Origin: Escherichia coli
GTDB taxonomy: Bacteria; Pseudomonadota; Gammaproteobacteria; Enterobacterales; Enterobacteriaceae
Direction: 5' to 3' (one strand)
DNA length: 64,000 bases
NCBI RefSeq assembly: GCF_050920415.1
Contig: NZ_CP169309.1
The number at the start of each line of letters is the position of its first letter. Within the stretch, counting starts at the first letter, position 1. The notes beneath the pieces were generated by a model that was given only the letters and a program-made list of their open reading frames with translations, was not told where the DNA came from and did not search any database. A program made the position numbers and the translations under genes. Shown in pieces: positions 4,493 to 54,299 of the stretch.

Positions 4493-5293
4493 TTAACCGC
4501 GCTTCGCCTTCTGCGTCGCGGTGGTTTTTCGTGTTGCAGGCTTCCGCGTTGTTTTTTTACTTTTGCTGCTTTCGTCCTGCGTCTGCGGTGTGCTGGCATC
4601 TTCTGGTGCGGCTGCGGAATCAGCTTTCTTCAGGGCGCGGGAAAGGGTTGCAATCTCGCGTTTCACACCTGCGTTCGGGTTCAGGTGCATCGCTTCGCGC
4701 AGCAGCTTCAGTGATGAGGCCATGCTGTCCGCATCACTCAGGCCACGGCGGGCAAAGGCGCACGCCTTGCATAATTTGGCGCGCACTTCGTCCGGCATAT
4801 CCTGGTTGGCGACAATTTCCCAAAGTGTGTCCAGTGGTTCGATAAAGGTGGACAAATCCGCGTCGGCATCCGTCCCGGCCTGCGTCAGTACCGGGTTGCA
4901 GATTTCTTCGGTCAGTACCGTGGCAGCAGTACGGCCAAAGTTATCCGGCATGATGAGGTTGTGACGGACCACATACGCACCAATACGCAGCGCAAGCGGA
5001 AGATCGCCGCAGTCAATCGCCCACACCATCAGCGTGGCAATCACTTCGTCCTGCTGCCCGCCGTCAGCCTCCAGCGTTCCCTCAATCCAGCCGGAAAAAT
5101 CCGGCAACAACTCTTTTTTGATGGCGGCTTTCGCGCTTCTTGCCTGTACGCCCTTAAGCCGGGCCTGTGCCAGACGCAGACGATACAGCACCTCTTCATG
5201 CGCGGTACGCGCGGCGTGGTCCACGCCTTCATTCGCCCGGCCTGCGCGCTGTGCCATCACGTTCTGCCAGTGTTGCTGTGCAGGAGTAATCAT
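4493..5293 (-). CDS. terminase small (endonuclease) subunit M
   Basis: 266-aa ORF with basic Lys/Thr-rich C-terminal tail, between N and L as in P2. Confidence 0.7.
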   Translation of the reverse strand: MITPAQQHWQNVMAQRAGRANEGVDHAARTAHEEVLYRLRLAQARLKGVQARSAKAAIKKELLPDFSGWIEGTLEADGGQQDEVIATLMVWAIDCGDLPLALRIGAYVVRHNLIMPDNFGRTAATVLTEEICNPVLTQAGTDADADLSTFIEPLDTLWEIVANQDMPDEVRAKLCKACAFARRGLSDADSMASSLKLLREAMHLNPNAGVKREIATLSRALKKADSAAAPEDASTPQTQDESSKSKKTTRKPATRKTTATQKAKRG

Positions 5294-7405: not shown

Positions 7406-9157
7406 ATGATTCAGGACGCTTTTGTGCGCCAGCGTGCGCGGCAACTTTACTGGCAGGGTTATCCGCCCGCAGAAATATCACGTCTGATGGGAATAAACCC
7501 GAACACGATTTATGCGTGGAAAAAACGCGACCAGTGGGATGAAACGCCACCCGTGCAGCGTGTCACGCAGTCCATCGATGCGCGCCTCATCCAGCTCACT
7601 GAAAAACAGAATAAAACAGGTGGTGACTTCAAGGAAATAGACCTGCTGACCCGGCAGCTTAAAAAACTGCATGATGGCCAGCCGGATGCGACGGCCACAG
7701 GAAAGAAAGGCCGGGCGAAAAAGCTTAAAAATCATTTCACGCCGGAACAGATTGCCGCACTGCGGGAAAAAATCATCAGCAGGCTGGAGTGGCATCAGCG
7801 GGGCTGGTTTGACTCCCTGACCCTTTGCAGGGAAGCAGGGATACGTAACAGGATGATCCTGAAATCCCGACAGATTGGGGCGACCTGGTATTTTGCACAG
7901 GAAGCGCTGCTGATGGCGCTGCGTGACGATGTGGCGCAACCTTACCAGCGTAACCAGATTTTTTTGTCTGCGTCGCGTCGTCAGGCGTTCCAGTTTAAAA
8001 GCATTATTCAGAAGGCCGCGGCTGAAGTTGATGTGGAGTTGAAAGGGGGCGATAAAATCATCCTCTCCAACGGCGCAGAGCTGCATTTTCTCGGCACTTC
8101 TGCTGCGTCGGCACAGTCCTATACGGGCAATTTTTATTTTGATGAATTTTTCTGGGTCAGTCGCTTTGCTGAACTGCGCAAGGTGGCTGGCGCTATGGCA
8201 ACCCTCAGCGGACTGCGGCGCACCTACTTCTCCACGCCATCCACCGAAACGCACGAGGCATACGCCTACTGGAACGGCGACCGCTGGAACGAGAAAAAGG
8301 CCACGCATAAACGCCAGCGTTTTTCTGTGGACTGGAAAACGCTGCATAACGGGCTTATCTGCCCTGACCGGACGTGGCGGCAAATTGTCACGCTGGAAGA
8401 TGTGGTTAATCACGGCTGGAAACACACCGATATCGACGAAATTCGTGATGAAAACACCGAAGACGAGTTCCTCAATCTCTATATGTGTGAGTTTGTCCGC
8501 GAAGGGGAATCGGCATTTAACCTGAATATCCTGATTGGCTGCGGTGTTGACGGATACGACGACTGGAAAGACTGGAAACCTTTTGCTCCCCGCCCGATGG
8601 GGAATCGTCCGGTATGGATTGGGTATGACGCAAACGGCAGCAGTGGCAACGGCGACAGCGGCGCTGTGTCCGTGGTGGTTCCTCCGTCTGTTCCTGGTGG
8701 CCGTTTTCGAACGGTGGAGACGCGACGCGCTCAGGGGCTGGAGTTTGAAGAACAGGCCAGAGTCATTGAAGAGTTCACGTGTCGCTACAACGTGGAACAC
8801 ATCGGCATTGATGTGACGGGCGGGAACGGGGAGGCTGTTTATCAGATAGTGAAACGGTTTTTCCCTGCCGCTATTCCGTACACCTTCACGCTGTCATCAA
8901 AACGGTCGCTGGTACTGAAAATGCTGCAAATAATGCGTGCCGGGCGGTGGGAATACGATCGCGCCGAACGCGAGCTGGTCGCGGCCTTTAACGCCGTGCG
9001 TAAGGTGAAAACACCGGGCGGCTTTATCACTTACGAAACGGACCGCGCGAGGGGGATCAGCCACGGCGACCTTGCGTGGGCAACCATGCTTGCTGTCATT
9101 AACGAACCAATTGGCGGCGAAGGAGAAAACGAGCGTTTCACGGTTATGGAGTTCTGA
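7406..9157 (+). CDS. terminase large (ATPase) subunit P
   Basis: 583-aa ORF divergent from O, P2 gpP-like size and position. Confidence 0.8.
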   Translation: MIQDAFVRQRARQLYWQGYPPAEISRLMGINPNTIYAWKKRDQWDETPPVQRVTQSIDARLIQLTEKQNKTGGDFKEIDLLTRQLKKLHDGQPDATATGKKGRAKKLKNHFTPEQIAALREKIISRLEWHQRGWFDSLTLCREAGIRNRMILKSRQIGATWYFAQEALLMALRDDVAQPYQRNQIFLSASRRQAFQFKSIIQKAAAEVDVELKGGDKIILSNGAELHFLGTSAASAQSYTGNFYFDEFFWVSRFAELRKVAGAMATLSGLRRTYFSTPSTETHEAYAYWNGDRWNEKKATHKRQRFSVDWKTLHNGLICPDRTWRQIVTLEDVVNHGWKHTDIDEIRDENTEDEFLNLYMCEFVREGESAFNLNILIGCGVDGYDDWKDWKPFAPRPMGNRPVWIGYDANGSSGNGDSGAVSVVVPPSVPGGRFRTVETRRAQGLEFEEQARVIEEFTCRYNVEHIGIDVTGGNGEAVYQIVKRFFPAAIPYTFTLSSKRSLVLKMLQIMRAGRWEYDRAERELVAAFNAVRKVKTPGGFITYETDRARGISHGDLAWATMLAVINEPIGGEGENERFTVMEF

Positions 9158-10203
9158 TGAGCAGAAAAAATAAAAAAGTGCGCATGAGTTCACGCATTGA
9201 TCTCGCTGATGCGCTCAGGAAAGAATCATCGCTCAGTGCATTCACATTTGATGGTCCTTATCGCCTGACCGGGCATGACCTGCTGGACAATATGTACTGT
9301 GCTGATAACGGGCGGTGGTATGAAACCCCGGTGGACTGGTACGGTCTGGCAAGAGCCGCCCGGCAAACGTCCTGGCATCAGTCTGCGCTTTACTTTAAGC
9401 GCAATGTATTGCTCGGTTGCTACATCCCGCACCCGCTGCTTTCCCGGCAGGATTTCTCGGCGCTGGCGCTGGACTGGTTTGTGTTCGGTAACGCATTCCT
9501 TGAGCTTCGAAGCAATATGCTCGGCGAACCGCTTAAATTACGGCACGCCCTGGCGAAATACATGCGACGCGGAAGCGATCTTGAATCATGGTGGTATGTG
9601 CAGGATGGCAAGGATGCGTTTCAGTTTCGCCCAGGCAAAGTGTGCCACCTGATGAATCCGGACATTAACCAGGAAATCTACGGCATGCCGGAATATCTCG
9701 GCGCATTACTCTCGGCCAGCCTGTCTCATTCGGCGGACATGTTCAGAAAACTGTATTACGACAACGGATCCCACGCCGGGTGCATCATCTACATCGGTGC
9801 AGCGCAGGTAAACCGCGAAAGCATGGACTCCCTGAAAGAAACGCTACAGGGTGCGCGTGGTGGTGGTGCGTTTAAAAACGTGCTCATTCATGCGCCCAAC
9901 GGGGGCAAAGAGGGGGTGCAAATTTTGCCGTTCCAGCAGATCACCGCAAAGGATGAGTTCATGAATGTTAAGGCGGCATCCCGTGATGATGTGCTGGCTG
10001 CGCACCGCGTTCCGCCGCAACTGATGGGGGCGATGCCGGGTGAAAAAAGTGCGTTTGGTGATGTGGAGAAGGCCGCGCGGGTTTACGCAATTAACGAGCT
10101 GATGCCCGTCATGGAGGCCATGAAGCATATCAATGACTGGCTTGGCGAAGAGGTGCTCCGCTTTAACCCTTACGCACTGCTGGACACCCAGCCCACATCC
10201 TGA
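9157..10203 (+). CDS. portal protein Q
   Basis: 348-aa ORF directly downstream of P, start overlapping P stop; P2 gpQ-like size. Confidence 0.8.
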   Translation: MSRKNKKVRMSSRIDLADALRKESSLSAFTFDGPYRLTGHDLLDNMYCADNGRWYETPVDWYGLARAARQTSWHQSALYFKRNVLLGCYIPHPLLSRQDFSALALDWFVFGNAFLELRSNMLGEPLKLRHALAKYMRRGSDLESWWYVQDGKDAFQFRPGKVCHLMNPDINQEIYGMPEYLGALLSASLSHSADMFRKLYYDNGSHAGCIIYIGAAQVNRESMDSLKETLQGARGGGAFKNVLIHAPNGGKEGVQILPFQQITAKDEFMNVKAASRDDVLAAHRVPPQLMGAMPGEKSAFGDVEKAARVYAINELMPVMEAMKHINDWLGEEVLRFNPYALLDTQPTS

Positions 10204-11450: not shown

Positions 11451-11645
11451 TCACTCTCCTTTAATGCGAAAGTGGTTTTTCCAGCGGTTTTGCGCCGCGC
11501 TGGGCTTTTTGCAAAAACCGCAATCCATCATCCCGTAATATTTCATCAACCCCATTCGTCGGTTGCTGAGTCTCACCCACTGCCATACGCCTGGATCGTT
11601 TCTGCGAACTAACAGAATCTTTGCTTTACGGTTGTTGGTTGCCAT
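11451..11645 (-). CDS. small basic protein (accessory operon)
   Basis: 64 aa from ATG at 11645, preceded by AAGGGAGG Shine-Dalgarno. Confidence 0.45.
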   Translation of the reverse strand: MATNNRKAKILLVRRNDPGVWQWVRLSNRRMGLMKYYGMMDCGFCKKPSAAQNRWKNHFRIKGE

Positions 11646-11961
11646 ATCCCCCTCCCTTGATACCAATATTTACAACATGGCAAGCCTCTTTGAGCACCCA
11701 GTCAACAGCGTCTTTCCATGCTCCGGTTTCGGCTGGCGGATTCTCACGCTTTACCAGTTCATAGAAACGTACTGCTCTAACCAGTCCATCTGACGGTTTT
11801 GCCTGTAGTGCAGCCTGAGCTATGCGGTATGCCTGGAGTATACGGGCGTCGTTGATATCCATTCCGAACGGAATTTCTGATGATTGTGATTCTGCATCTT
11901 CAAGCCTGGCAATTTCTTTACGTAAGAAGTATTTCAACTCTTGTTTTTGTTTTCTGTTCAT
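11626..11961 (-). CDS. hypothetical protein (accessory operon)
   Basis: 111 aa; ATGA start/stop overlap with upstream zinc-finger gene; AAGGGA Shine-Dalgarno. Confidence 0.5.
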
Positions 11962-12290
11962 GCGTTTTTTCCCTTTTTGTCTGTCACTTCTCTCCTGATA
12001 ATTTCATTGCACAAATCCACGCACTCATTGCAGATGTAAACAGACGGTCCAGCAATCACCTTTGTGACTTCGTACTGGGATTTATTGCAGAAGCTGCAAT
12101 AAATCGTCTCCTCACCTGAAGTCCATGTTTTGCTGGTTTCGCCAGACATCAGTTGTTTGAGGTCTTTTTCACGACGAAGAACTATCTGGCCACATTCAGC
12201 TATTTTTTGGATGTTGACATTTTCTTCTTTCGCCAGCGCTTCCATCCGCTCAATCAGTCGCTGCGCTTTTTCTCTGTCAATGTGTTGCAT
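11958..12290 (-). CDS. small protein with C-terminal ClpX-type C4 zinc-finger domain
   Basis: Segment [40 protein letters not shown] closely matches the recalled N-terminal zinc-binding domain of ClpX ([40 protein letters not shown]); no AAA+ domain follows. AAGGGGGA Shine-Dalgarno. Confidence 0.6.
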
Positions 12291-12353
12291 TGTGTCCCCC
12301 TTGTTTATGCTCCCGGGTTAAAGTCATCAGGGCGGATGCGCCCTGATGTTGTG

Positions 12354-12665
12354 TTATTCGGGAAATAACGCCCGGATATTTCCGGCCATCTGACTGGTTA
12401 TCTGTGCGGCTGATACTGGCTGTGACGCGGGGCGTTCTGTCCTGGGTTGTGTCACTGATAACGCCTCATCATCAGCCCATGCAGCCAGTCGGTAAGCCTC
12501 TGCCGGATTCATTTTCAGTAGTGCCAGCCCGGCCAGAAAAGCCACGCGTTGACCACTTTTGCGGGCTTCTGGTGTAAGGCTGTCCAGCCAGGCGCATGCT
12601 TCGCCTTCGTTCTTGACGGCGGCGGGCTTCAGATAGAAACTTATCCGTCTGGTTGGTGTCGTCAT
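12354..12665 (-). CDS. ParR-like centromere-binding protein (ribbon-helix-helix)
   Basis: 103 aa; RRISFYLKP...WLDSL...FLAGLALL...NIRALFPE resembles recalled plasmid R1 ParR (RRTIAFKLNP...TLDSI...LTAGLALY...ILRSLFPKE); directly downstream of the ParM-like gene with AAGGAG Shine-Dalgarno. Confidence 0.6.
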   Translation of the reverse strand: MTTPTRRISFYLKPAAVKNEGEACAWLDSLTPEARKSGQRVAFLAGLALLKMNPAEAYRLAAWADDEALSVTQPRTERPASQPVSAAQITSQMAGNIRALFPE

Positions 12666-12669
12666 TGGC

Positions 12670-13629
12670 TTACTCCTTGTCCATTGCGTACAGCCCATTA
12701 ACCAGAGCAAACTGTGGCACCCCGTCCGCGATGAAAGTCGCATTAACTCCGCAGGCTTCGCGGATAGCGGGTGCCACAATCTCCGCCCCGCCACCGACAA
12801 CCATCACCCGCCCGTAACCCGAAAAACCCGCCAGCGCGCGGATCACGCGTTGTTTCAGTGTTTCTTCCTTTTCACGAATAACCGCCATCAGGCTGGCGTA
12901 ATGCGCGTCATTGTGGATGTGCTGGCGCAGCCAGGCTTCATCATGGCGATGTTCAATAATGGTATTGGCGATGTGGTGACTGGTGCGCATACCGTTAGTG
13001 GCCATCACCGACAGCACGGCATCGGCCATCAGTGAAACACCTACGTGTGGATCGCAAAACACCTGGCTGATACCTGCCAGTTGTCCCTGAACCTTTGCCA
13101 CATCCAGCGTGGTTCCGCCCAAATCCACAATCAGCAGGGATTCAAACGGACTCATGTCAGCCAGTGCCTTAAAGCCTGCCGGAATGGATTCAGGCATAAC
13201 CCGCACGTTACGGATAGTGAATGCCTCACCGTTCTGGTACTCCACCGGGCGCATAACGTTCGCTTTTTTGCGGTTGATGTTGGCCATGTCCGGCTGTGCG
13301 TTTGTGTCGAAATACTCGCTCAGTGGCAGGGTGACAACCACATCCACCTCCTGTGGCGTGATGCCTGATTTGACCAGCGCGTGATGAATGGCAATGACAT
13401 TCACATCGCTGTATTGGTATTGCGTGTCGGTCGTCTGGACAAAGCGATCGCTGACCGGATCAAAACCATAGCGCACGCCATCAAGCATGTAGTTCGCGGG
13501 CTGCGTGCCACCGAACGGCGCAGACCATTCCGACTTGAAGCTGTTCGGGCTGATGGCGTTGCGGCGTTCGCCGTTCTCAGTCCATGCCAGCTTGATGTTG
13601 GTGGAGCCGTCGTCGATACAAATTTTCAT
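12670..13629 (-). CDS. ParM/StbA-like actin-fold segregation ATPase
   Basis: 319 aa with the ParM nucleotide-binding motifs: MKICIDDGSTNIKLAW (phosphate 1), IVDLGGTTLDV (connect/adenosine), VMVVGGGAEI (phosphate 2). Confidence 0.8.
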   Translation of the reverse strand: MKICIDDGSTNIKLAWTENGERRNAISPNSFKSEWSAPFGGTQPANYMLDGVRYGFDPVSDRFVQTTDTQYQYSDVNVIAIHHALVKSGITPQEVDVVVTLPLSEYFDTNAQPDMANINRKKANVMRPVEYQNGEAFTIRNVRVMPESIPAGFKALADMSPFESLLIVDLGGTTLDVAKVQGQLAGISQVFCDPHVGVSLMADAVLSVMATNGMRTSHHIANTIIEHRHDEAWLRQHIHNDAHYASLMAVIREKEETLKQRVIRALAGFSGYGRVMVVGGGAEIVAPAIREACGVNATFIADGVPQFALVNGLYAMDKE

Positions 13630-13660: not shown

Positions 13661-13760
13661 TTTACGGGATTCTGAAATCCCGTTTTTGCCTGCTTTGTGC
13701 GCGCTTCATATATCACTGCGCGTTTTTTGCTCATTTACGGGATTCGTGAGTCCCGTTTCT
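13661..13760. repeat. two direct copies of a 27-bp hairpin-containing repeat upstream of the ParM-like gene
   Basis: TTTACGGGATTCTGAAATCCCGTTTTT (13661-13687) and TTTACGGGATTCGTGAGTCCCGTTTCT (13734-13760), 22/27 identical, each an ACGGGA/TCCCGT inverted repeat; the second lies inside the 3' end of gene A. Confidence 0.5.
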
Positions 13761-16528
13761 GTCTGTTTTTTGTTTCCGCTGGTCAGGCCACCCCGCAGCA
13801 GGTCTGCTTTGCGGCTGGCGCGTTCAGTGGTTTCACTGATTCTCTGTGCGTGCTCTGCGTCGCGGATGGCGCGCAGCATGTCAGAAAGCACAGTAACGGG
13901 TGTTTTCATGGTGTTCTGGTCCTGCTGAAGTGTGGATGCCAGGCGTGCGGCGGCTTCAGGGTCTGATGCCCCCAGCTGTGCCAGATAGCTGGCGACCGGG
14001 TTATGGCGGATCTCCGTGCTGCTTACGCCATGATTACGGCTCAGGCGCTGCCAGAGCTGCGTGATTCGGCTGTCCGGGCGGGTATCCGGTTTGCGTACAA
14101 TTTCAAATCCCTGCGGTGCAATGATGCTGCCGTCAACGTACAGACTGCCGCCCCGTAACAGGTGCTGCATCTGTTGTTCACCGATATGCAGGCCGAGAGA
14201 TTCAGCAGACTCCCGCCATTCTTTAGCGAGTAATTCGTGGTTATCAGGCAAAGGCCGCTGCTGTTTGCGGCTCTGTGTCCAGCTCTGCATTTCATCACTG
14301 CTGTTTTTTGCCTGTTTGTCACGAAGCGAACGCATCAGCGCCCGGCGTTCGTGCCGTTTCAGTGAGCGCATCCATTCGTTCACTTCAACGCCGTCAGGGA
14401 GCTGCGGCCACGGTGCTGGCCGTTCTTCCGGCTGTTCTGTCCCGTTGTTGTCCGTTTCCTGTGCACGGGGACAGTTATTGCCACGAGTCCAAGGGGCGGC
14501 AGGGCCGCCCTGAAGGTCAAAACCATTTTCGTGGGCGTTGTCTCCCGGTTCTGGTTTACGTCTTACCAGCTTCCAGTTATCCGGATGCGTGCACACACGG
14601 GAGGATTCCCCGATGAGTGGTGACCAGATCCCGTAAATCTGTACGCTCTGTTCGCCGTAATCGTTCAGCTCATCTGCGAGGTCGTAGGCGGTGCGAATCA
14701 GGTAGTCCTTGCGTGGAACAAGCACGCCACCCTGTTTTTCAATGTAGGTGGCAAAACACCCGGCATCGGCGGCAGCGAGTACCGCATCCATTGCATCATC
14801 TTTCAGCCGTTGCGGGCCTTCCGGATTGCGTGCCATCTGGCTGGCAAGGCGGCGCAGTTCACGCCACACCTGACGGGAGGGGATGCCAAAGAACTGGAAC
14901 TGACGGACCCGGTGAAGGCGCGCCCAGCCGATGGCGCGCTCCACGCTCTCGGCCATTGATTTTCCGGTTTCGTGGTCAACGCGTGGCTTGCCCGTTTTCG
15001 GGTCGATGCCATCCACGGCGCGGCTGTCCAGGTTCTTTCCGATGTAGGTGGCGATGTAGCTGGTTGGTGTGCCTTTTGAGCCGTCGACATACTCCGCCTT
15101 AAAACGCGGAGTTATGTCATCGCCCAGCTCGTGGCGGTCCTCCTGAATGGCAATATCGCAGACGTGGGACACGATGGTTTCAATCTCGTCCGGATGTGCA
15201 AAGACCATCATATGCCAGTGCACAGTGCCGTCATGGTGAGGCTCCACCGTGCGGATGCCATACCAGCGCAGGCCGTCGCGGTTCAGTTTTTTGCGGACCG
15301 CCGCAAAAAACGTGTTAACCAGGTAATCGCTGGAGTCGCGCATGGTGGCCCCGTTCCATTTGGGGTTCGGATGACCGTTCTCCGTTGTTGCGTGGTATTT
15401 TGACGGGCAGGTGACGGTCAGAAACACCGCTCTGTCGCCACGGGCTTCGGCCAGAAGTTCCAGTCCCTTCATGGTGGCCATCATTTCTGCCTTACGGTGA
15501 ACCGGGTTACTTACTCCCGCGTAATACACCGTCTCGAGATCAATCGTGAACCCGTCTTCATTTTCCAGCATGAAACTTTTCAGGAAATCGCGTGTTTTCT
15601 CGCGCTGTGCGCGAAACTCGCTTAACGCGTCCTGGCTCAGATAGGGGGATGTTTTTCTGGAAACCAGACAGGCGGCGCGGAGTTGTTCTTCCCGCCACTC
15701 ACAACGTAACAGCCACAGTTTGCGTTTCCACCATTCCGCACAGGTCAAGCGAAGGATTGCGCCCGGCAGCAGCTCCGTGTCCGGTTCGTTCCTCCGGTCT
15801 TTGTCTGTTGTCAGTGCGTCATAATGTGGAGGCATGGCGTGCAGGTGTAACGCCATGCGGGCCAGCATCTGATAAGCCTTCAGGGTTACATCCATGGTCA
15901 GCTCGCCATCAGTCGCGCCAAAGCCATCGCAGAGTTTTTCGAAGGTGCTGCTGAACATCGCCGCCGTCATGGTGGCCAGCGTCTGTATCTGGTGTTTGTT
16001 GAGCTGCGGCAGGTAAAGCAAATCGTCCAGGCGTTCGCGTCCGGCAAGGGAGCGATAACCCGGTGTCAGCCAGCGGTGGTCGGTGCGGTCCAGACGTTCG
16101 AATATTTTGCGCAGGGTTCCGCACGCGTAGCGTTCAGCCTGCCAGCTCTTTTTGCCTTTCCGGCGATCGGCTTCCTGTTTTTTGCGCAGGAAGGAGAGGT
16201 GGCGAATAAGCGGATCGCGCAGATAGGACGGCAGCAGGCGCAGCGAGGCCATGGCTTCATCCACCGCGCCACGTGCCTGTTTTCTGGCGTCTCCTGCCAG
16301 TGTGATGGTTTTGTCCTGTTTTTCCTGTGCGTCCAGGCTTTTATTAATCAGGTTGCCCAGCGGCGTGGCGGAGAACGCCGCATCAGCCATTTCCTGGCGG
16401 CGCTCGTTCTCTGCCCGGTAGGCATCCAGCCAGGAGGAAAGCGCGGATTCAGGAGCGGGGATCCCCGTTCCTTCACGCCCCACTGCGTGGCGCGGTTGTT
16501 GCCAGTCCCTGATGTACTCTGCCGTCAT
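13706..16528 (-). CDS. replication initiation protein A (rolling-circle nicking endonuclease, P2 gpA-like)
   Basis: 940 aa; HUH-type motif region GTVHWHMMVF and tyrosine motif TSYIATYIGK; position between early genes and accessory region. Confidence 0.8.
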   Translation of the reverse strand: MTAEYIRDWQQPRHAVGREGTGIPAPESALSSWLDAYRAENERRQEMADAAFSATPLGNLINKSLDAQEKQDKTITLAGDARKQARGAVDEAMASLRLLPSYLRDPLIRHLSFLRKKQEADRRKGKKSWQAERYACGTLRKIFERLDRTDHRWLTPGYRSLAGRERLDDLLYLPQLNKHQIQTLATMTAAMFSSTFEKLCDGFGATDGELTMDVTLKAYQMLARMALHLHAMPPHYDALTTDKDRRNEPDTELLPGAILRLTCAEWWKRKLWLLRCEWREEQLRAACLVSRKTSPYLSQDALSEFRAQREKTRDFLKSFMLENEDGFTIDLETVYYAGVSNPVHRKAEMMATMKGLELLAEARGDRAVFLTVTCPSKYHATTENGHPNPKWNGATMRDSSDYLVNTFFAAVRKKLNRDGLRWYGIRTVEPHHDGTVHWHMMVFAHPDEIETIVSHVCDIAIQEDRHELGDDITPRFKAEYVDGSKGTPTSYIATYIGKNLDSRAVDGIDPKTGKPRVDHETGKSMAESVERAIGWARLHRVRQFQFFGIPSRQVWRELRRLASQMARNPEGPQRLKDDAMDAVLAAADAGCFATYIEKQGGVLVPRKDYLIRTAYDLADELNDYGEQSVQIYGIWSPLIGESSRVCTHPDNWKLVRRKPEPGDNAHENGFDLQGGPAAPWTRGNNCPRAQETDNNGTEQPEERPAPWPQLPDGVEVNEWMRSLKRHERRALMRSLRDKQAKNSSDEMQSWTQSRKQQRPLPDNHELLAKEWRESAESLGLHIGEQQMQHLLRGGSLYVDGSIIAPQGFEIVRKPDTRPDSRITQLWQRLSRNHGVSSTEIRHNPVASYLAQLGASDPEAAARLASTLQQDQNTMKTPVTVLSDMLRAIRDAEHAQRISETTERASRKADLLRGGLTSGNKKQTETGLTNPVNEQKTRSDI

Positions 16529-19109: not shown

Positions 19110-19514
19110 ATGAAAAATGATATTGGTCAGCGGTTGCGTGAGGAAAGGGAAAGATTGGGACTTAGTCAAGTTGCCATGAGCGACATTGGTGGAGTCAAAA
19201 AGCTAACTCAGCTTAGATATGAGAAAGGAGATAGCTTTCCTGATGCTGCGTATTTGGCAGCGCTGTCTCGTTTTGGCCTTGATGTTCAGTATGTTGTGTT
19301 GGGAATTCACTCACCTGAAACTTATAACGATGATGAGCAGGAGTTGATTACTCGCTTTCGAGCAGCTTCGTTAGATGTGAAAAACGCGGTGATTGGGGCT
19401 TTAAAAGGTGCGATCAGTGAAAAGGAAACTCAGCCATCAGGACGTGAGTTAAATATTTCTGGTGGTAATAACCGTATTGCTGGTCGTGACTATAACGAAA
19501 CTAAGGGTAGGTGA
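19110..19514 (+). CDS. CI-like immunity repressor, HTH XRE family
   Basis: 134 aa; N-terminal IGQRLREERERLGLSQVAMSDIGGVKKLTQLRYEKG is a classic XRE helix-turn-helix; transcribed toward the integrase as in 186. Confidence 0.75.
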   Translation: MKNDIGQRLREERERLGLSQVAMSDIGGVKKLTQLRYEKGDSFPDAAYLAALSRFGLDVQYVVLGIHSPETYNDDEQELITRFRAASLDVKNAVIGALKGAISEKETQPSGRELNISGGNNRIAGRDYNETKGR

Positions 19515-19529: not shown

Positions 19530-20180
19530 ATGGCCGTCAACTCAAACGGTTCAAACAATCGCGTTGCTGGGCGTGATTTTCACGAAAAGAATATTCAGAT
19601 AGAGCGATATGATGGTTCTCATACCGTCAATATCGCAATCCCTTCGAATAATGATGATGACGATCGCCCTTTGCTTAAGGCTCAGCGTAAGGAGCTAAAT
19701 AGTTTGGTTGCTGCTATTGCAGAAGCTAGCAATACTGAAGCGTTTATTATTTGGCAAAAAGTACATGCTGAGATTGGTGTAGCTGGTATTGATGATATGA
19801 CAGTAAATCAATATAAAACAGCGGAGAGTTTTCTGCATGCAATGCTTGAGCGATGTAAAGATCATGATGCCTGTAAGGCTCTTGTAAGTTTATTACTACG
19901 TAACAGTGAAGACTGTGGACTTCGACAAAAACTTCTGCGGTATTGCCATATCAATTTCGGTACAGGACGTTTAAACGATCTTACTCGTTCTCAGTTACAG
20001 TCTGCATTGTCGTGGTTAGAGCAACAATCGGCATCAAGCCACACAGAGAGTTCGACCTTACCAGAAGTCCGACTTCGTGCTTCAGAATTAATCCGACTTT
20101 ATCCAAAAGAAATAATATTCTTTATCTGCGTAGGGGGTTTGGTAGGCGGTGTCATTTCTAGGGTGCTTTTTAATTTGTAA
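19530..20180 (+). CDS. cargo protein, C-terminally membrane-anchored, unknown function
   Basis: 216 aa, GGGAGG Shine-Dalgarno; C-terminal TM helix IIFFICVGGLVGGVISRVLF; N-terminus repeats a peptide motif found at the repressor C-terminus. Confidence 0.55.
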   Translation: MAVNSNGSNNRVAGRDFHEKNIQIERYDGSHTVNIAIPSNNDDDDRPLLKAQRKELNSLVAAIAEASNTEAFIIWQKVHAEIGVAGIDDMTVNQYKTAESFLHAMLERCKDHDACKALVSLLLRNSEDCGLRQKLLRYCHINFGTGRLNDLTRSQLQSALSWLEQQSASSHTESSTLPEVRLRASELIRLYPKEIIFFICVGGLVGGVISRVLFNL

Positions 20181-20562: not shown

Positions 20563-21564
20563 ATGTCGGTTCGTAAGATTCCATCAGGTAAATGGCTTTG
20601 CGAATGTTATCCCTACGGGGCATCGGGAAAACGCATTCGTAAACAGTTTGCGACAAAAAGTGAGGCGCTCTCTTATGAGCGCCGTTTAATGAATAGTAGA
20701 GTTGGAGACGAGTTTCAAGATGGTTCTGGTCCTCGTCTTTCTGAGTTGATTGCTCGTTGGTTTGAGATGTACGGTAAAACCTTGTCCTCTGGTGCAGAGC
20801 GCAAAGTCAAACTTGAGGCGATTTGTTCCAGGCTGGGAGATCCATTTGCTTCTCAGTTTGACAAAAATATGTTTGCTACTTATCGGGAAAGAAGGCTATC
20901 AGGAGAATGGAATCCCAAGGGGAAGAAAAAACTTAGTGAAGCAACCGTTAATCGCGAGCAGTCATATCTACATGCTGTTTTTGCCGAACTGAAGCGCCTT
21001 GGGGAGTGGTCTGGTGAAAACCCCCTGACTGGTATTCGCAAGTTTCGTGAGGAAGAAAAGGAACTGGCGTTTCTGTATGTAGATGAGATTGAACGCCTTC
21101 TGATTGCGTGTGATGAGTCACGGAATAAAGATTTGGGGGTTGTTGTCCGTATTGGGCTTGCGACTGGTGCTCGGTGGAGTGAAGCAGAAGGATTAAAGCA
21201 ATCTCAAGTACTGCCCGGTCGAATCACATTTGTTAAAACTAAAGGAAAGAAGAACCGCACTGTACCGATTTCACCTCAATTGCAGGCTATGCTTCCTAAA
21301 AAACGAGGAGCGCTATTTTCACCATGTTATGAGGCTTTTGACGCTGCAATTAAGAGAGCGAAGATCGAGCTTCCTGATGGGCAATTAACTCATGTGCTAC
21401 GTCACACGTTTGCCAGTCATTTTATGATGCGGGGCGGAAATATTCTTGTGTTGCAAAAAATACTGGGGCATAGCGATATAAAAATGACTATGCGTTATGC
21501 GCATTTTGCTCCAGGTCATTTAGAGGCTGCTGTTGAATTGAACCCTTTTGACAATAGAGGGTAA
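20563..21564 (+). CDS. int: prophage integrase (tyrosine recombinase)
   Basis: 333 aa; catalytic motifs HVLRHTFASHF and TMRYAH; last prophage gene before the tRNA fragment. Confidence 0.85.
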   Translation: MSVRKIPSGKWLCECYPYGASGKRIRKQFATKSEALSYERRLMNSRVGDEFQDGSGPRLSELIARWFEMYGKTLSSGAERKVKLEAICSRLGDPFASQFDKNMFATYRERRLSGEWNPKGKKKLSEATVNREQSYLHAVFAELKRLGEWSGENPLTGIRKFREEEKELAFLYVDEIERLLIACDESRNKDLGVVVRIGLATGARWSEAEGLKQSQVLPGRITFVKTKGKKNRTVPISPQLQAMLPKKRGALFSPCYEAFDAAIKRAKIELPDGQLTHVLRHTFASHFMMRGGNILVLQKILGHSDIKMTMRYAHFAPGHLEAAVELNPFDNRG

Positions 21565-21920: not shown

Positions 21921-22586
21921 ATGAAAACGGGACCGTTAAACGAAAGTGAGTTGGAATGGCTGGACGATATTCTGACCAAATACAACACTGACCACGCCAT
22001 TCTTGATGTGGCGGAGCTGGACGGTTTATTGACGGCGGTGTTGAGTTCTCCGCAAGAGATTGAACCGGCACAGTGGCTGGTTGCCGTATGGGGTGGGGCT
22101 GACTATGTGCCACGCTGGGCGTCAGAGAAAGAGATGACGCGCTTTATGAACCTGGCTTTTCAGCATATGGCCGATACCGCAGAGCGTCTGAACGAATTCC
22201 CGGAGCAGTTTGAGCCGTTATTCGGCTTGCGAGAAGTCGATGGCAGCGAGCTGACGATTGTTGAGGAGTGGTGCTTTGGCTATATGCGGGGCGTGGCACT
22301 TTCTGACTGGTCAACGTTGCCCGATTCGTTAAAACCGGCGCTGGAGGCGATTGCGCTGCACGGTACTGAGGAAAACTTCGAGCGGGTAGAGAAGATGTCG
22401 CCAGAAGCGTTTGAAGAGAGCGTAGATGCCATTCGACTGGCGGCGCTTGATTTACATGCATACTGGATGGCGCATCCGCAGGAAAAAGCTGTTCAGCAAC
22501 CGATCAAAGCAGAAGAGAAACCGGGTCGTAACGATCCTTGTCCGTGCGGCAGTGGTAAGAAATTTAAGCAGTGCTGCCTGCATTAA
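21921..22586 (+). CDS. yecA: YecA, UPF0149 protein with C-terminal SEC-C metal-binding motif
   Basis: 221 aa ending [13 protein letters not shown]; K-12 gene order next to leuZ. Confidence 0.85.
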
Positions 22587-39916: not shown

Positions 39917-40060
39917 TTATCCCGATTTCCTCAATTGCAATGAACCCGATGATCTGCGCATCGGGTTTTTTATGTCAATTTTGCGGTGGATGGCATCATT
40001 AATAAAGTTTCCCTCCTTCTTGCCGATAACGAGATCAACTTGTTTTCAGGAAGGTGCCTT

Positions 40061-53463: not shown

Positions 53464-54219
<756 letters not shown>

Positions 54220-54265
54220 TTTTTACCGTTGCATCATGTCGCCCAATATGATGCTTGCTCGTACC

Positions 54266-54299
54266 AGGCCCCTGCAATTTCAACAGGGGCCTTTTTTTA
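54266..54299 (+). terminator. rho-independent terminator after cutC
   Basis: Perfect 9-bp stem AGGCCCCTG/CAGGGGCCT with 9-nt loop followed by TTTTTTT. Confidence 0.65.

Follow-up and report, generated by a model that had tools for sequence, protein, structure and literature searches.

The window analysed here is a 64,000-nucleotide stretch of the Escherichia coli contig NZ_CP169309.1 (assembly GCF_050920415.1), whose first ~21.6 kb are a P2-family prophage and whose remainder is E. coli chromosome. The subject of this report is a small prophage gene at positions 11958-12290 on the minus strand (ATG start, stop codon included), whose 110-amino-acid (aa) product carries a stand-alone ClpX-type zinc-binding domain (ZBD) and lacks the ClpX motor. 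The open reading frame (ORF) is a real gene; its product is identical to a protein of phage P88 and to RefSeq entry WP_001163780.1, and it most likely has an accessory function in temperate phages of enterobacteria. We tentatively propose, as the explanation with most support, that the protein mimics the docking domain of ClpX in soluble form and would titrate ligands of the ClpX N-domain and selectively inhibit the corresponding branch of ClpX/ClpXP activity, a reading that we hold to be possible, though somewhat short of probable.

A ClpX-Type Zinc-Binding Domain without an AAA+ Module

A sequence-only reading of this stretch had placed a ClpX-type zinc finger in the C-terminal 40 residues of the protein. 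A significant profile match bore this out: Pfam zf-C4_ClpX (PF06689) aligns with residues 64-99 with an i-Evalue of 8.9e-18, covering model positions 2-38 of 39. As delimited by Pfam, the match to Protein Data Bank (PDB) entries, alignment and superposition, the C4 domain spans codons 63-102 (11985-12104, minus strand). The ZBD is thus on the C-terminal side of the protein, as had been claimed, but does not end it, since a tail of 8 residues lies beyond.

When all PDB sequences were searched with phmmer, the significant matches were to ClpX entries only (1ovx, E 2e-19; 2ds5, E 6.5e-19). The C-terminal part of an AlphaFold2 (AF2) model, with predicted local distance difference test scores (pLDDT) of 73-87, was superimposed by Foldseek on 2ds5, 2ds6 and 2ds8 with root-mean-square deviations of 1.2-1.3 Å and target template modelling scores of 0.83-0.87; 2ds8, matched at ~1.2 Å, is the complex of the ZBD with the SspB tail. 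Over the ZBD core, 31 of 40 residues are identical to those of E. coli ClpX.

The family was aligned as 13 sequences, that is, 12 homologues and ClpX. The putative zinc ligands, assigned by alignment to ClpX, are C65 (12096-12098), C68 (12087-12089), C87 (12030-12032) and C90 (12021-12023), all on the minus strand, and they are invariant in all 13 sequences. Loss of the four cysteines in homologues, which the earlier reading had named as a sign that the assignment was wrong, was therefore not seen in any of them. Residues S66, F67, K70, V75, I79, A80, G81, V84, I86, E89, V91, D92, N95 and I98 are likewise invariant and identical to ClpX.

The NCBIfam ClpX equivalog models TIGR00382 and NF003745 have cut-offs of 371 and 359 bits, respectively; the protein reaches 50 and 49 bits and aligns with them through residues 60-106 only. 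It follows that the AAA+ module is absent, in agreement with what had been read from the sequence; the protein is 110 aa long, and the flanking ORFs are unrelated to ClpX.

Largely Retained Pocket Residues and a Possible Decoy Function

In ClpX, the N-domain dimerises in a zinc-dependent manner; it docks SspB, RssB and the substrates lambda O, MuA, UmuD/D', FtsZ and MqsA, and is dispensable for recognition of the ssrA tag (PMC5415555; PMC8808172). Nuclear magnetic resonance and mutagenesis have implicated ClpX residues L12, L13, H23, K27, I29 and A30 in binding of the MqsA degron; the site of the SspB tail overlaps this pocket, and the L12S substitution in ClpX impairs both degradation and retention of MqsA (PMC8808172). 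The residues that occupy these six positions in the phage protein are T62, I63, Y73, K77, I79 and A80. Across the family, the positions of L13, H23, K27, I29 and A30 are taken by I or L, Y or H, mostly K, I and A. By this comparison, the peptide groove appears to be largely preserved, and the retained residues make a decoy function plausible.

We compared the ZBD with E. coli clpX at the nucleotide level. For the window gene, identity is 59-65%, depending on the stretch, third-codon positions match at 14 of 40 to 16 of 48, and 20 of the 31 identical residues are specified by different codons. In five other family members, the ZBD is 68-88% identical to ClpX as protein and 40-48% identical at third-codon positions. 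For all members compared, nucleotide identity to clpX is 59-75% and third-codon identity 35-48%, with about half or more of the ClpX-identical residues differently coded. A blastn search with the gene against 5426 complete E. coli genomes did not retrieve clpX. Recent capture from host clpX, or gene conversion by it, is excluded by the nucleotide and third-codon divergence and by the blastn result. High protein identity combined with near-random third codons points to an old copy that selection has kept ClpX-like; to judge from these comparisons, that is what the ZBD is, with its synonymous sites near saturation.

By pairwise identity, most family members are as near to the ClpX ZBD as they are to members of the other subtype (see below), or nearer. 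Ratios of non-synonymous to synonymous substitution (dN/dS; Nei-Gojobori) between subtypes are 0.24-0.33 for the whole gene and ~0.3 in the ZBD, as under purifying selection. The ZBDs of D6 (locus L004, 4980-5300) and PhiR41_1 (locus L005, 4980-5303) differ by 10.7 non-synonymous and 2.3 synonymous changes, a dN/dS of ~1.1 from small counts, and the differences include Y64C in PhiR41_1; selection on this pair may be locally diversifying or relaxed. The retained pocket, the ZBD identity to ClpX despite near-saturated synonymous sites, and the low dN/dS between subtypes are consistent with a decoy.

In the mechanism that we envisage, the free ZBD would offer ligands the same groove that host ClpX uses for peptide binding in its N-domain and would capture, in trans, adaptor tails (the XB tail of SspB) and N-domain-dependent substrates (MqsA-type degrons, lambda O, MuA, UmuD/D' and FtsZ). 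Recognition through the N-domain branch of ClpX/ClpXP would thereby be competitively inhibited, and substrates that engage the pore, of the ssrA type, would be spared. We infer zinc binding, dimerisation, ligand capture and read-through expression from the early (gpA) operon. The isolated ClpX ZBD is said, in studies dating from 2003 and 2006, to bind lambda O, MuA and SspB and to inhibit their ClpXP-dependent degradation in trans.

Candidate beneficiaries are phage or plasmid replication and maintenance proteins, as well as antitoxins whose ClpXP-dependent decay triggers abortive infection. Degradation of MqsA makes use of the ClpX N-domain (PMC8808172). Toxicity of CmdTA requires clpX and clpP and acts via a C-terminal AA degron (bioRxiv 2024.02.24.581848), a route that a ZBD decoy may leave unblocked.

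A Family-Specific Helical Hairpin Precedes the ZBD

A second domain, helical and specific to the family, takes up about half of the protein; the sequence-only reading had missed it. Codons 1-48 (12147-12290, minus strand) encode a predicted N-terminal helical hairpin, with helices at residues 6-23 and 27-48 and a pLDDT of 85-95 in the AF2 model built on the family alignment. Codons 49-62 (12105-12146, minus strand) encode a disordered linker (pLDDT below 50 at residues 54-59), which is the most variable stretch of the alignment. Hairpin residues E17, E23 and R40 are invariant in the family.

A search of 1.84 billion representative proteins with the hairpin gave 12 matches; those retrieved were family members or fragments, and one long match was a protein of 1212 aa. 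The hairpin has no match in Pfam, its best hit in a profile search of the PDB has an E-value of 0.33, and it is not similar to the anti-adaptor IraP (E = 6.4). Homology to known proteins was thus found in none of these comparisons, by which the hairpin is restricted to the family. It probably serves oligomerisation or provides a second, phage-specific contact.

Distribution and Mobility of the Gene

Two-domain homologues fall into two subtypes, A (MQHIDREK...) and B (MTTSHSAIT...). Subtype A is carried by P88-like prophages. Subtype B is found in phage-plasmids, namely D6 (P1-related) and PhiR41_1/CMS-2020a (~108 kb); strain DETEC-S792 has it in a lambdoid prophage, and strain P13-6, among others, in a P88-like one. 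Divergent members lie in the gpA-portal interval of ParM-less P2-like prophages; one is a protein of Salmonella Typhimurium (P0019, 44% identity), another is protein P0123. In all, the gene is located between gpA and gpQ in four different P2-like lineages. Cultured phages that carry it are P88, PhiR44_2 and D6.

Of 232 occurrences of the gene in E. coli genomes, 105 are plasmid-borne, some on plasmids of ~90-110 kb, the size range of the D6 and PhiR41_1/CMS-2020a phage-plasmids. In every context examined, the gene is co-oriented with replication genes and located downstream of them, often amid early accessory genes of the ea22/DUF4014/DUF551 type. A conserved two-gene module was rejected, since no relationship links the proteins encoded downstream in the window, in PhiR41_1 and in P13-6, and each backbone has its own set of neighbours. 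The gene thus moves, and presumably acts, alone, and its solo movement among four phage backbones with no conserved neighbour implies a target that is common to the hosts. In the PhiR41_1 locus, a UmuD-like gene (L005, 8820-9209) is located ~3.5 kb downstream of the zinc-finger gene; as UmuD/D' are N-domain clients, a functional link is conceivable, though the proximity is perhaps a coincidence.

P2-like phages have a variable hotspot between gpA and the portal gene gpQ, the site of old and tin in P2 and of many anti-phage systems, where partition systems and toxins are also found as cargo unrelated to defence (Rousset et al. 2022, PMC9122126). A supplementary table published with it gives arrangements such as "StbA + Plasmid_stab_B + zf-C4_ClpX + hypothetical"; "ClpX" and "StbA" have no occurrences in the main text of the paper, where no record of the zinc-finger gene being assayed was found either.

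P88-type parM, at no less than 80% coverage, is present in 1278 of the 5426 complete E. coli genomes, nearly always on the chromosome, in keeping with the published remark that roughly one P2-like phage in four has a partition system (PMC9122126). Of the same 5426 genomes, 111 (~2%) have the zinc-finger gene in full length, corresponding to about 1 in 11 parM-type prophages. Models of known defence systems in PADLOC matched neither the zinc-finger protein nor the 111-aa ORF downstream of it, the ParR-like protein or ParM, and a defence system of a known kind was rejected on this ground.

Prophage Setting and Gene Neighbourhood

The prophage is of the P88 type (P2 family, genus Xuanwuvirus) and adjoins yecA/tyrP; its integrase gene is at 20563-21564 and the neighbouring chromosomal yecA at 21921-22586. 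The zinc-finger protein, identical to that of P88, is 96% identical to that of phage PhiR44_2. At the DNA level, the gene is 100% identical to a locus of E. coli UMNF18, which adjoins pheA rather than yecA/tyrP and is thus a different copy or strain.

Reading along the coding strand, the order is gpA, ParM, ParR-like gene, a DNA hairpin, the zinc-finger gene, five small accessory ORFs and then the convergent portal gene. The gpA replication endonuclease gene (13706-16528, minus strand) is the left boundary of the hotspot, and the portal (gpQ) gene (9157-10203, plus strand) its right boundary. A ParM/StbA-like segregation ATPase gene (12670-13629, minus strand) is followed by a ParR/StbB-like partition gene (12354-12665, minus strand). 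In the window the latter is intact and encodes 103 aa that are 91% identical to those of the UTI89 copy; its UMNF18 counterpart carries the RefSeq flag "frameshifted".

Alignment with other P88-like prophages revealed that the conserved backbone ends exactly at the stop codon of the ParR-like gene (12354-12356). The DNA hairpin and the zinc-finger gene belong to an exchangeable cassette. A spacer of 63 nt separates this stop codon from the zinc-finger gene and contains, at the start of the variable cassette, a GC-rich 10-bp hairpin (12325-12348, minus strand; z = -3.9 for the fold of 91 nt) with no U-tract on the coding strand. Direct reading of the sequence reveals a Shine-Dalgarno-like AAGGGGG (12296-12302, minus strand) 5 nt upstream of the ATG.

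On the downstream side, an ATGA overlap (11958-11961) joins the stop codon of the zinc-finger gene to the start of a 111-aa gene (11626-11961, minus strand), which belongs to PHROG families of unknown function and is unrelated to ClpX. Of the translational coupling to both neighbours that had been proposed earlier, the downstream half is supported by this overlap; the upstream half is ruled out by the hairpin-bearing gap, and so coupling holds on one side only.

A spacer of 63-121 nt with a strong inverted repeat precedes the zinc-finger gene in three divergent P2-like lineages. The repeat is found in the window at the position given above, in locus L014 at ~4905-4962, where it is a perfect palindrome of 26 bp, and in locus L013 at ~4893-4935; in none of the three is there a U-tract on the coding strand. 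Attenuation, processing or protein binding are possible roles of this repeat at the cassette edge. No σ70-like promoter was detected in the upstream spacer of the window, L013 or L014, and an Rfam scan found no RNA family in or near the locus.

Weighing the Decoy against Other Explanations

Several points weigh against the idea that the protein titrates N-domain ligands. The position of ClpX L12 is T in most family members and P, A or N in the others, and the pocket is therefore an inexact copy whose specificity may differ from that of ClpX. The conserved hairpin, amounting to half of the protein, finds no explanation in a pure decoy. AF2 modelling of a GS-linked homodimer, which bears on the question of a four-helix bundle plus ZBD dimer, gave a mean pLDDT of 44 and no usable model. 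The P2-type gpA is not known to be a ClpXP substrate. Proteins other than ClpX, such as cyanobacterial sigma factors, also contain the ZBD as an accessory module, so its presence alone does not imply ClpX biology.

This last observation leads to the possibility that the protein has nothing to do with ClpX, the ZBD being a generic zinc-stabilised module for dimerisation or protein binding and the hairpin carrying the activity, for instance as a regulator or an inhibitor of a host protein. The invariant residues of the hairpin and its restriction to this family speak for such a role, as does the use of the ZBD in unrelated proteins like the sigma factors just mentioned. Yet a generic module has no need of 68-88% identity to ClpX, solvent-exposed pocket residues included, maintained over near-saturated synonymous divergence. 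The protein is, moreover, near neutral (isoelectric point 6.6), and no nucleic-acid-binding signature was seen. Pseudomonas phage phi1 has an annotated coding sequence (CDS) of 65 aa that consists of the ZBD with no extra domain, which suggests that the ZBD is the active part; candidates from Klebsiella (73 aa) and Caulobacter (79 aa) phages are of comparable length, although they are unannotated ORFs with uncertain GTG/TTG starts. On balance, we consider a ClpX-unrelated role rather improbable.

If the ZBD does act on ClpX, it might do so as a poison subunit. The phage domain would heterodimerise with the ClpX N-domain and either disrupt the three N-domain dimers of the hexamer or hang the hairpin on ClpX, so that N-domain function would be blocked or changed in general. 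Hydrophobic positions of the C-terminal helix and hairpin are kept in the family, namely Y85 (Y/F/W), I86, L93 (L/A/V/I), I97 (I/V) and I98, which we take to correspond to the ZBD dimer interface, and P2-borne members are 78-90% identical to host ClpX. Against this stand the failure of AF2 to give a dimer model and the variation of L93 in subtype B (A, V, I), a sign that co-adaptation to the interface of ClpX is not strict. The dimer of ClpX ZBDs is, moreover, reported to be very stable and is at high local concentration within the hexamer, and exchange with a free domain should therefore be inefficient. A poison subunit is, in our estimate, improbable.

A further possibility leaves the titration chemistry as proposed and changes its use: as cargo of the P2 hotspot, the protein could be a prophage exclusion factor that starves superinfecting phages in need of the ClpX N-domain. 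Mu is an example, for its transpososome must be remodelled by ClpX. The gene occupies the gpA-gpQ interval in four lineages, is present in ~111 of the ~1278 parM-bearing complete E. coli genomes, as exchangeable cargo would be, and is preceded by the hairpin-bearing spacer of 63-121 nt, unlike the tightly packed early genes. The interval is a known anti-phage hotspot, and the zf-C4_ClpX arrangement appears in the published table of hotspot arrangements (PMC9122126). The same hotspot, though, is shared by partition systems, toxins and other cargo without a role in defence, PADLOC gave no match, and in lambdoid prophages and phage-plasmids the gene lies among early "ea"-type genes and not in defence islands. 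Since no σ70-like promoter was detected in the spacer, expression in the lysogen is not supported. We regard exclusion as unlikely to a similar degree as a poison subunit.

Very unlikely, in our view, is an adaptor or re-targeting factor whose hairpin would bind cargo and whose ZBD would dock on ClpX, through a heterodimer or on the AAA+ ring, and deliver the cargo for unfolding or degradation. The arrangement of two domains on a flexible linker does resemble that of tethering adaptors, in which a cargo-binding domain is joined to a ClpX-docking element. There is, however, no conserved partner gene, and known ClpX adaptors bind to the ZBD rather than carry one.

Comparison with Known Systems and Other Phage Mini-Proteins

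The phage protein and the E. coli ClpX ZBD (PF06689; 1OVX, 2DS5-2DS8) are alike in the CxxC...CxxC site, the predicted fold, most pocket residues and the hydrophobic residues of the C-terminal helix. They differ in that the former is phage-encoded, has no AAA+ motor and carries the ZBD at its C-terminal side, behind a novel hairpin; substitutions in the phage family include L12T, G19N, H23Y and D38N.

Other phages encode even smaller ZBD proteins, and PHROGs contains two further ZBD families, 12435 and 5259. The gene for the ZBD-only 65-aa protein of the D3-like Pseudomonas phage phi1 (ALY08156) follows that for replication protein P at a short distance, with a single small ORF in between. Between cII and the replication gene of Klebsiella phage ST846-OXA48phi9.2, an unannotated ORF of 73 aa (L007, 2501-2722; MK416022.1, 13044-13265) encodes a ClpX-type zinc finger; the record has a 51-aa ORF on the opposite strand instead. 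Caulobacter phage Cr30 has a 79-aa ORF of this kind (L008, 1480-1719, TTG start as listed), and its record contains only a shorter CDS of 41 aa over the 3' part.

Like the protein studied here, these mini-proteins (PHROG 12435 and 5259) stand alone and lack the AAA+ module, and those from Pseudomonas and Klebsiella phages adjoin replication genes. Unlike it, they have no helical N-terminal domain and belong to other PHROG families. The phi1 one is also less ClpX-like; its ZBD is presumably ~55% identical to that of P. aeruginosa ClpX, by a manual count. Repeated independent recruitment of the ZBD by phages strengthens the case for the ZBD itself being the active part.

The logic proposed for a decoy, in which a small protein blocks a route into an AAA+ protease, is that of PinA of T4 and Gp4.5 of T7, which act against Lon, and of IraP, IraD and IraM, which act against RssB-ClpXP. 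Those proteins bind the protease or its adaptor, whereas the phage ZBD protein would imitate the docking domain of the protease itself. With IraP there is no sequence relationship, as stated above. With old, tin and other cargo found between gpA and gpQ in P2-like phages, the gene shares the locus and the patchy distribution, and it appears in the hotspot table (PMC9122126). It differs in that its product has no PADLOC match and its expression in the lysogen is unsupported.

Annotation and Significance

WP_001163780.1 is named "ClpX C4-type zinc finger protein" in RefSeq, and the family is phrog_6797, function unknown, in PHROGs. Many records, among them those of P88, D6 and numerous E. coli entries, give the name "carboxylate--amine ligase", which nothing in the sequence supports and which appears to be a propagated misannotation. 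Full-text literature searches found no functional study of this family or of any stand-alone phage ZBD protein. Since the domain assignment and the hotspot cassette are already public, the bare observation is not new; what is new is the motor-less architecture of hairpin, linker and ZBD, and the proposed docking-domain mimicry.

ClpXP governs many decisions of relevance to phages and plasmids, including turnover of lambda O and MuA, decay of Phd and MqsA, the levels of RpoS and UmuD', and the fate of HsdR in restriction alleviation. We know of no virus-encoded protein described as acting through imitation of the docking domain of ClpX. That this family and the Pseudomonas, Klebsiella and Caulobacter mini-proteins together represent an unrecognised viral strategy, in which a copy of the ClpX docking domain selectively shuts off N-domain-dependent proteolysis and remodelling, strikes us as less likely than not. 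If it is true, the phage could benefit from stabilisation of its replication or regulatory proteins, from a block of ClpXP-triggered toxin-antitoxin defence of the MqsRA type, or, upon expression from a prophage, from keeping out competitors that depend on ClpX, Mu among them.

Should the protein indeed be a decoy, it would be a natural selective inhibitor of the adaptor and N-domain branch of ClpXP, hence a tool for separating that branch from pore-mediated recognition, and a new kind of host-takeover or anti-defence factor. Should the decoy idea be wrong, what remains is a further small accessory ORF that has borrowed a zinc finger. With ~2% of complete E. coli genomes and several cultured phages carrying it, the family is common enough for easy study.

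Other Features of the Window

Towards the integrase end, the prophage contains a helix-turn-helix repressor-like ORF (19110-19514, plus strand) with a weak match of the RstR/DicA type. Next to it is a 216-aa ORF (19530-20180, plus strand) that partially matches Flk, a flagellar regulator (E 8e-16, far under the cut-off), and is an unusual passenger of an immunity region. In the chromosomal part, Rfam identified the small RNA MicL (53991-54298, plus strand; 366 bits) and the C0465 RNA (39936-40013, minus strand; 78 bits), both of which are ordinary E. coli features.

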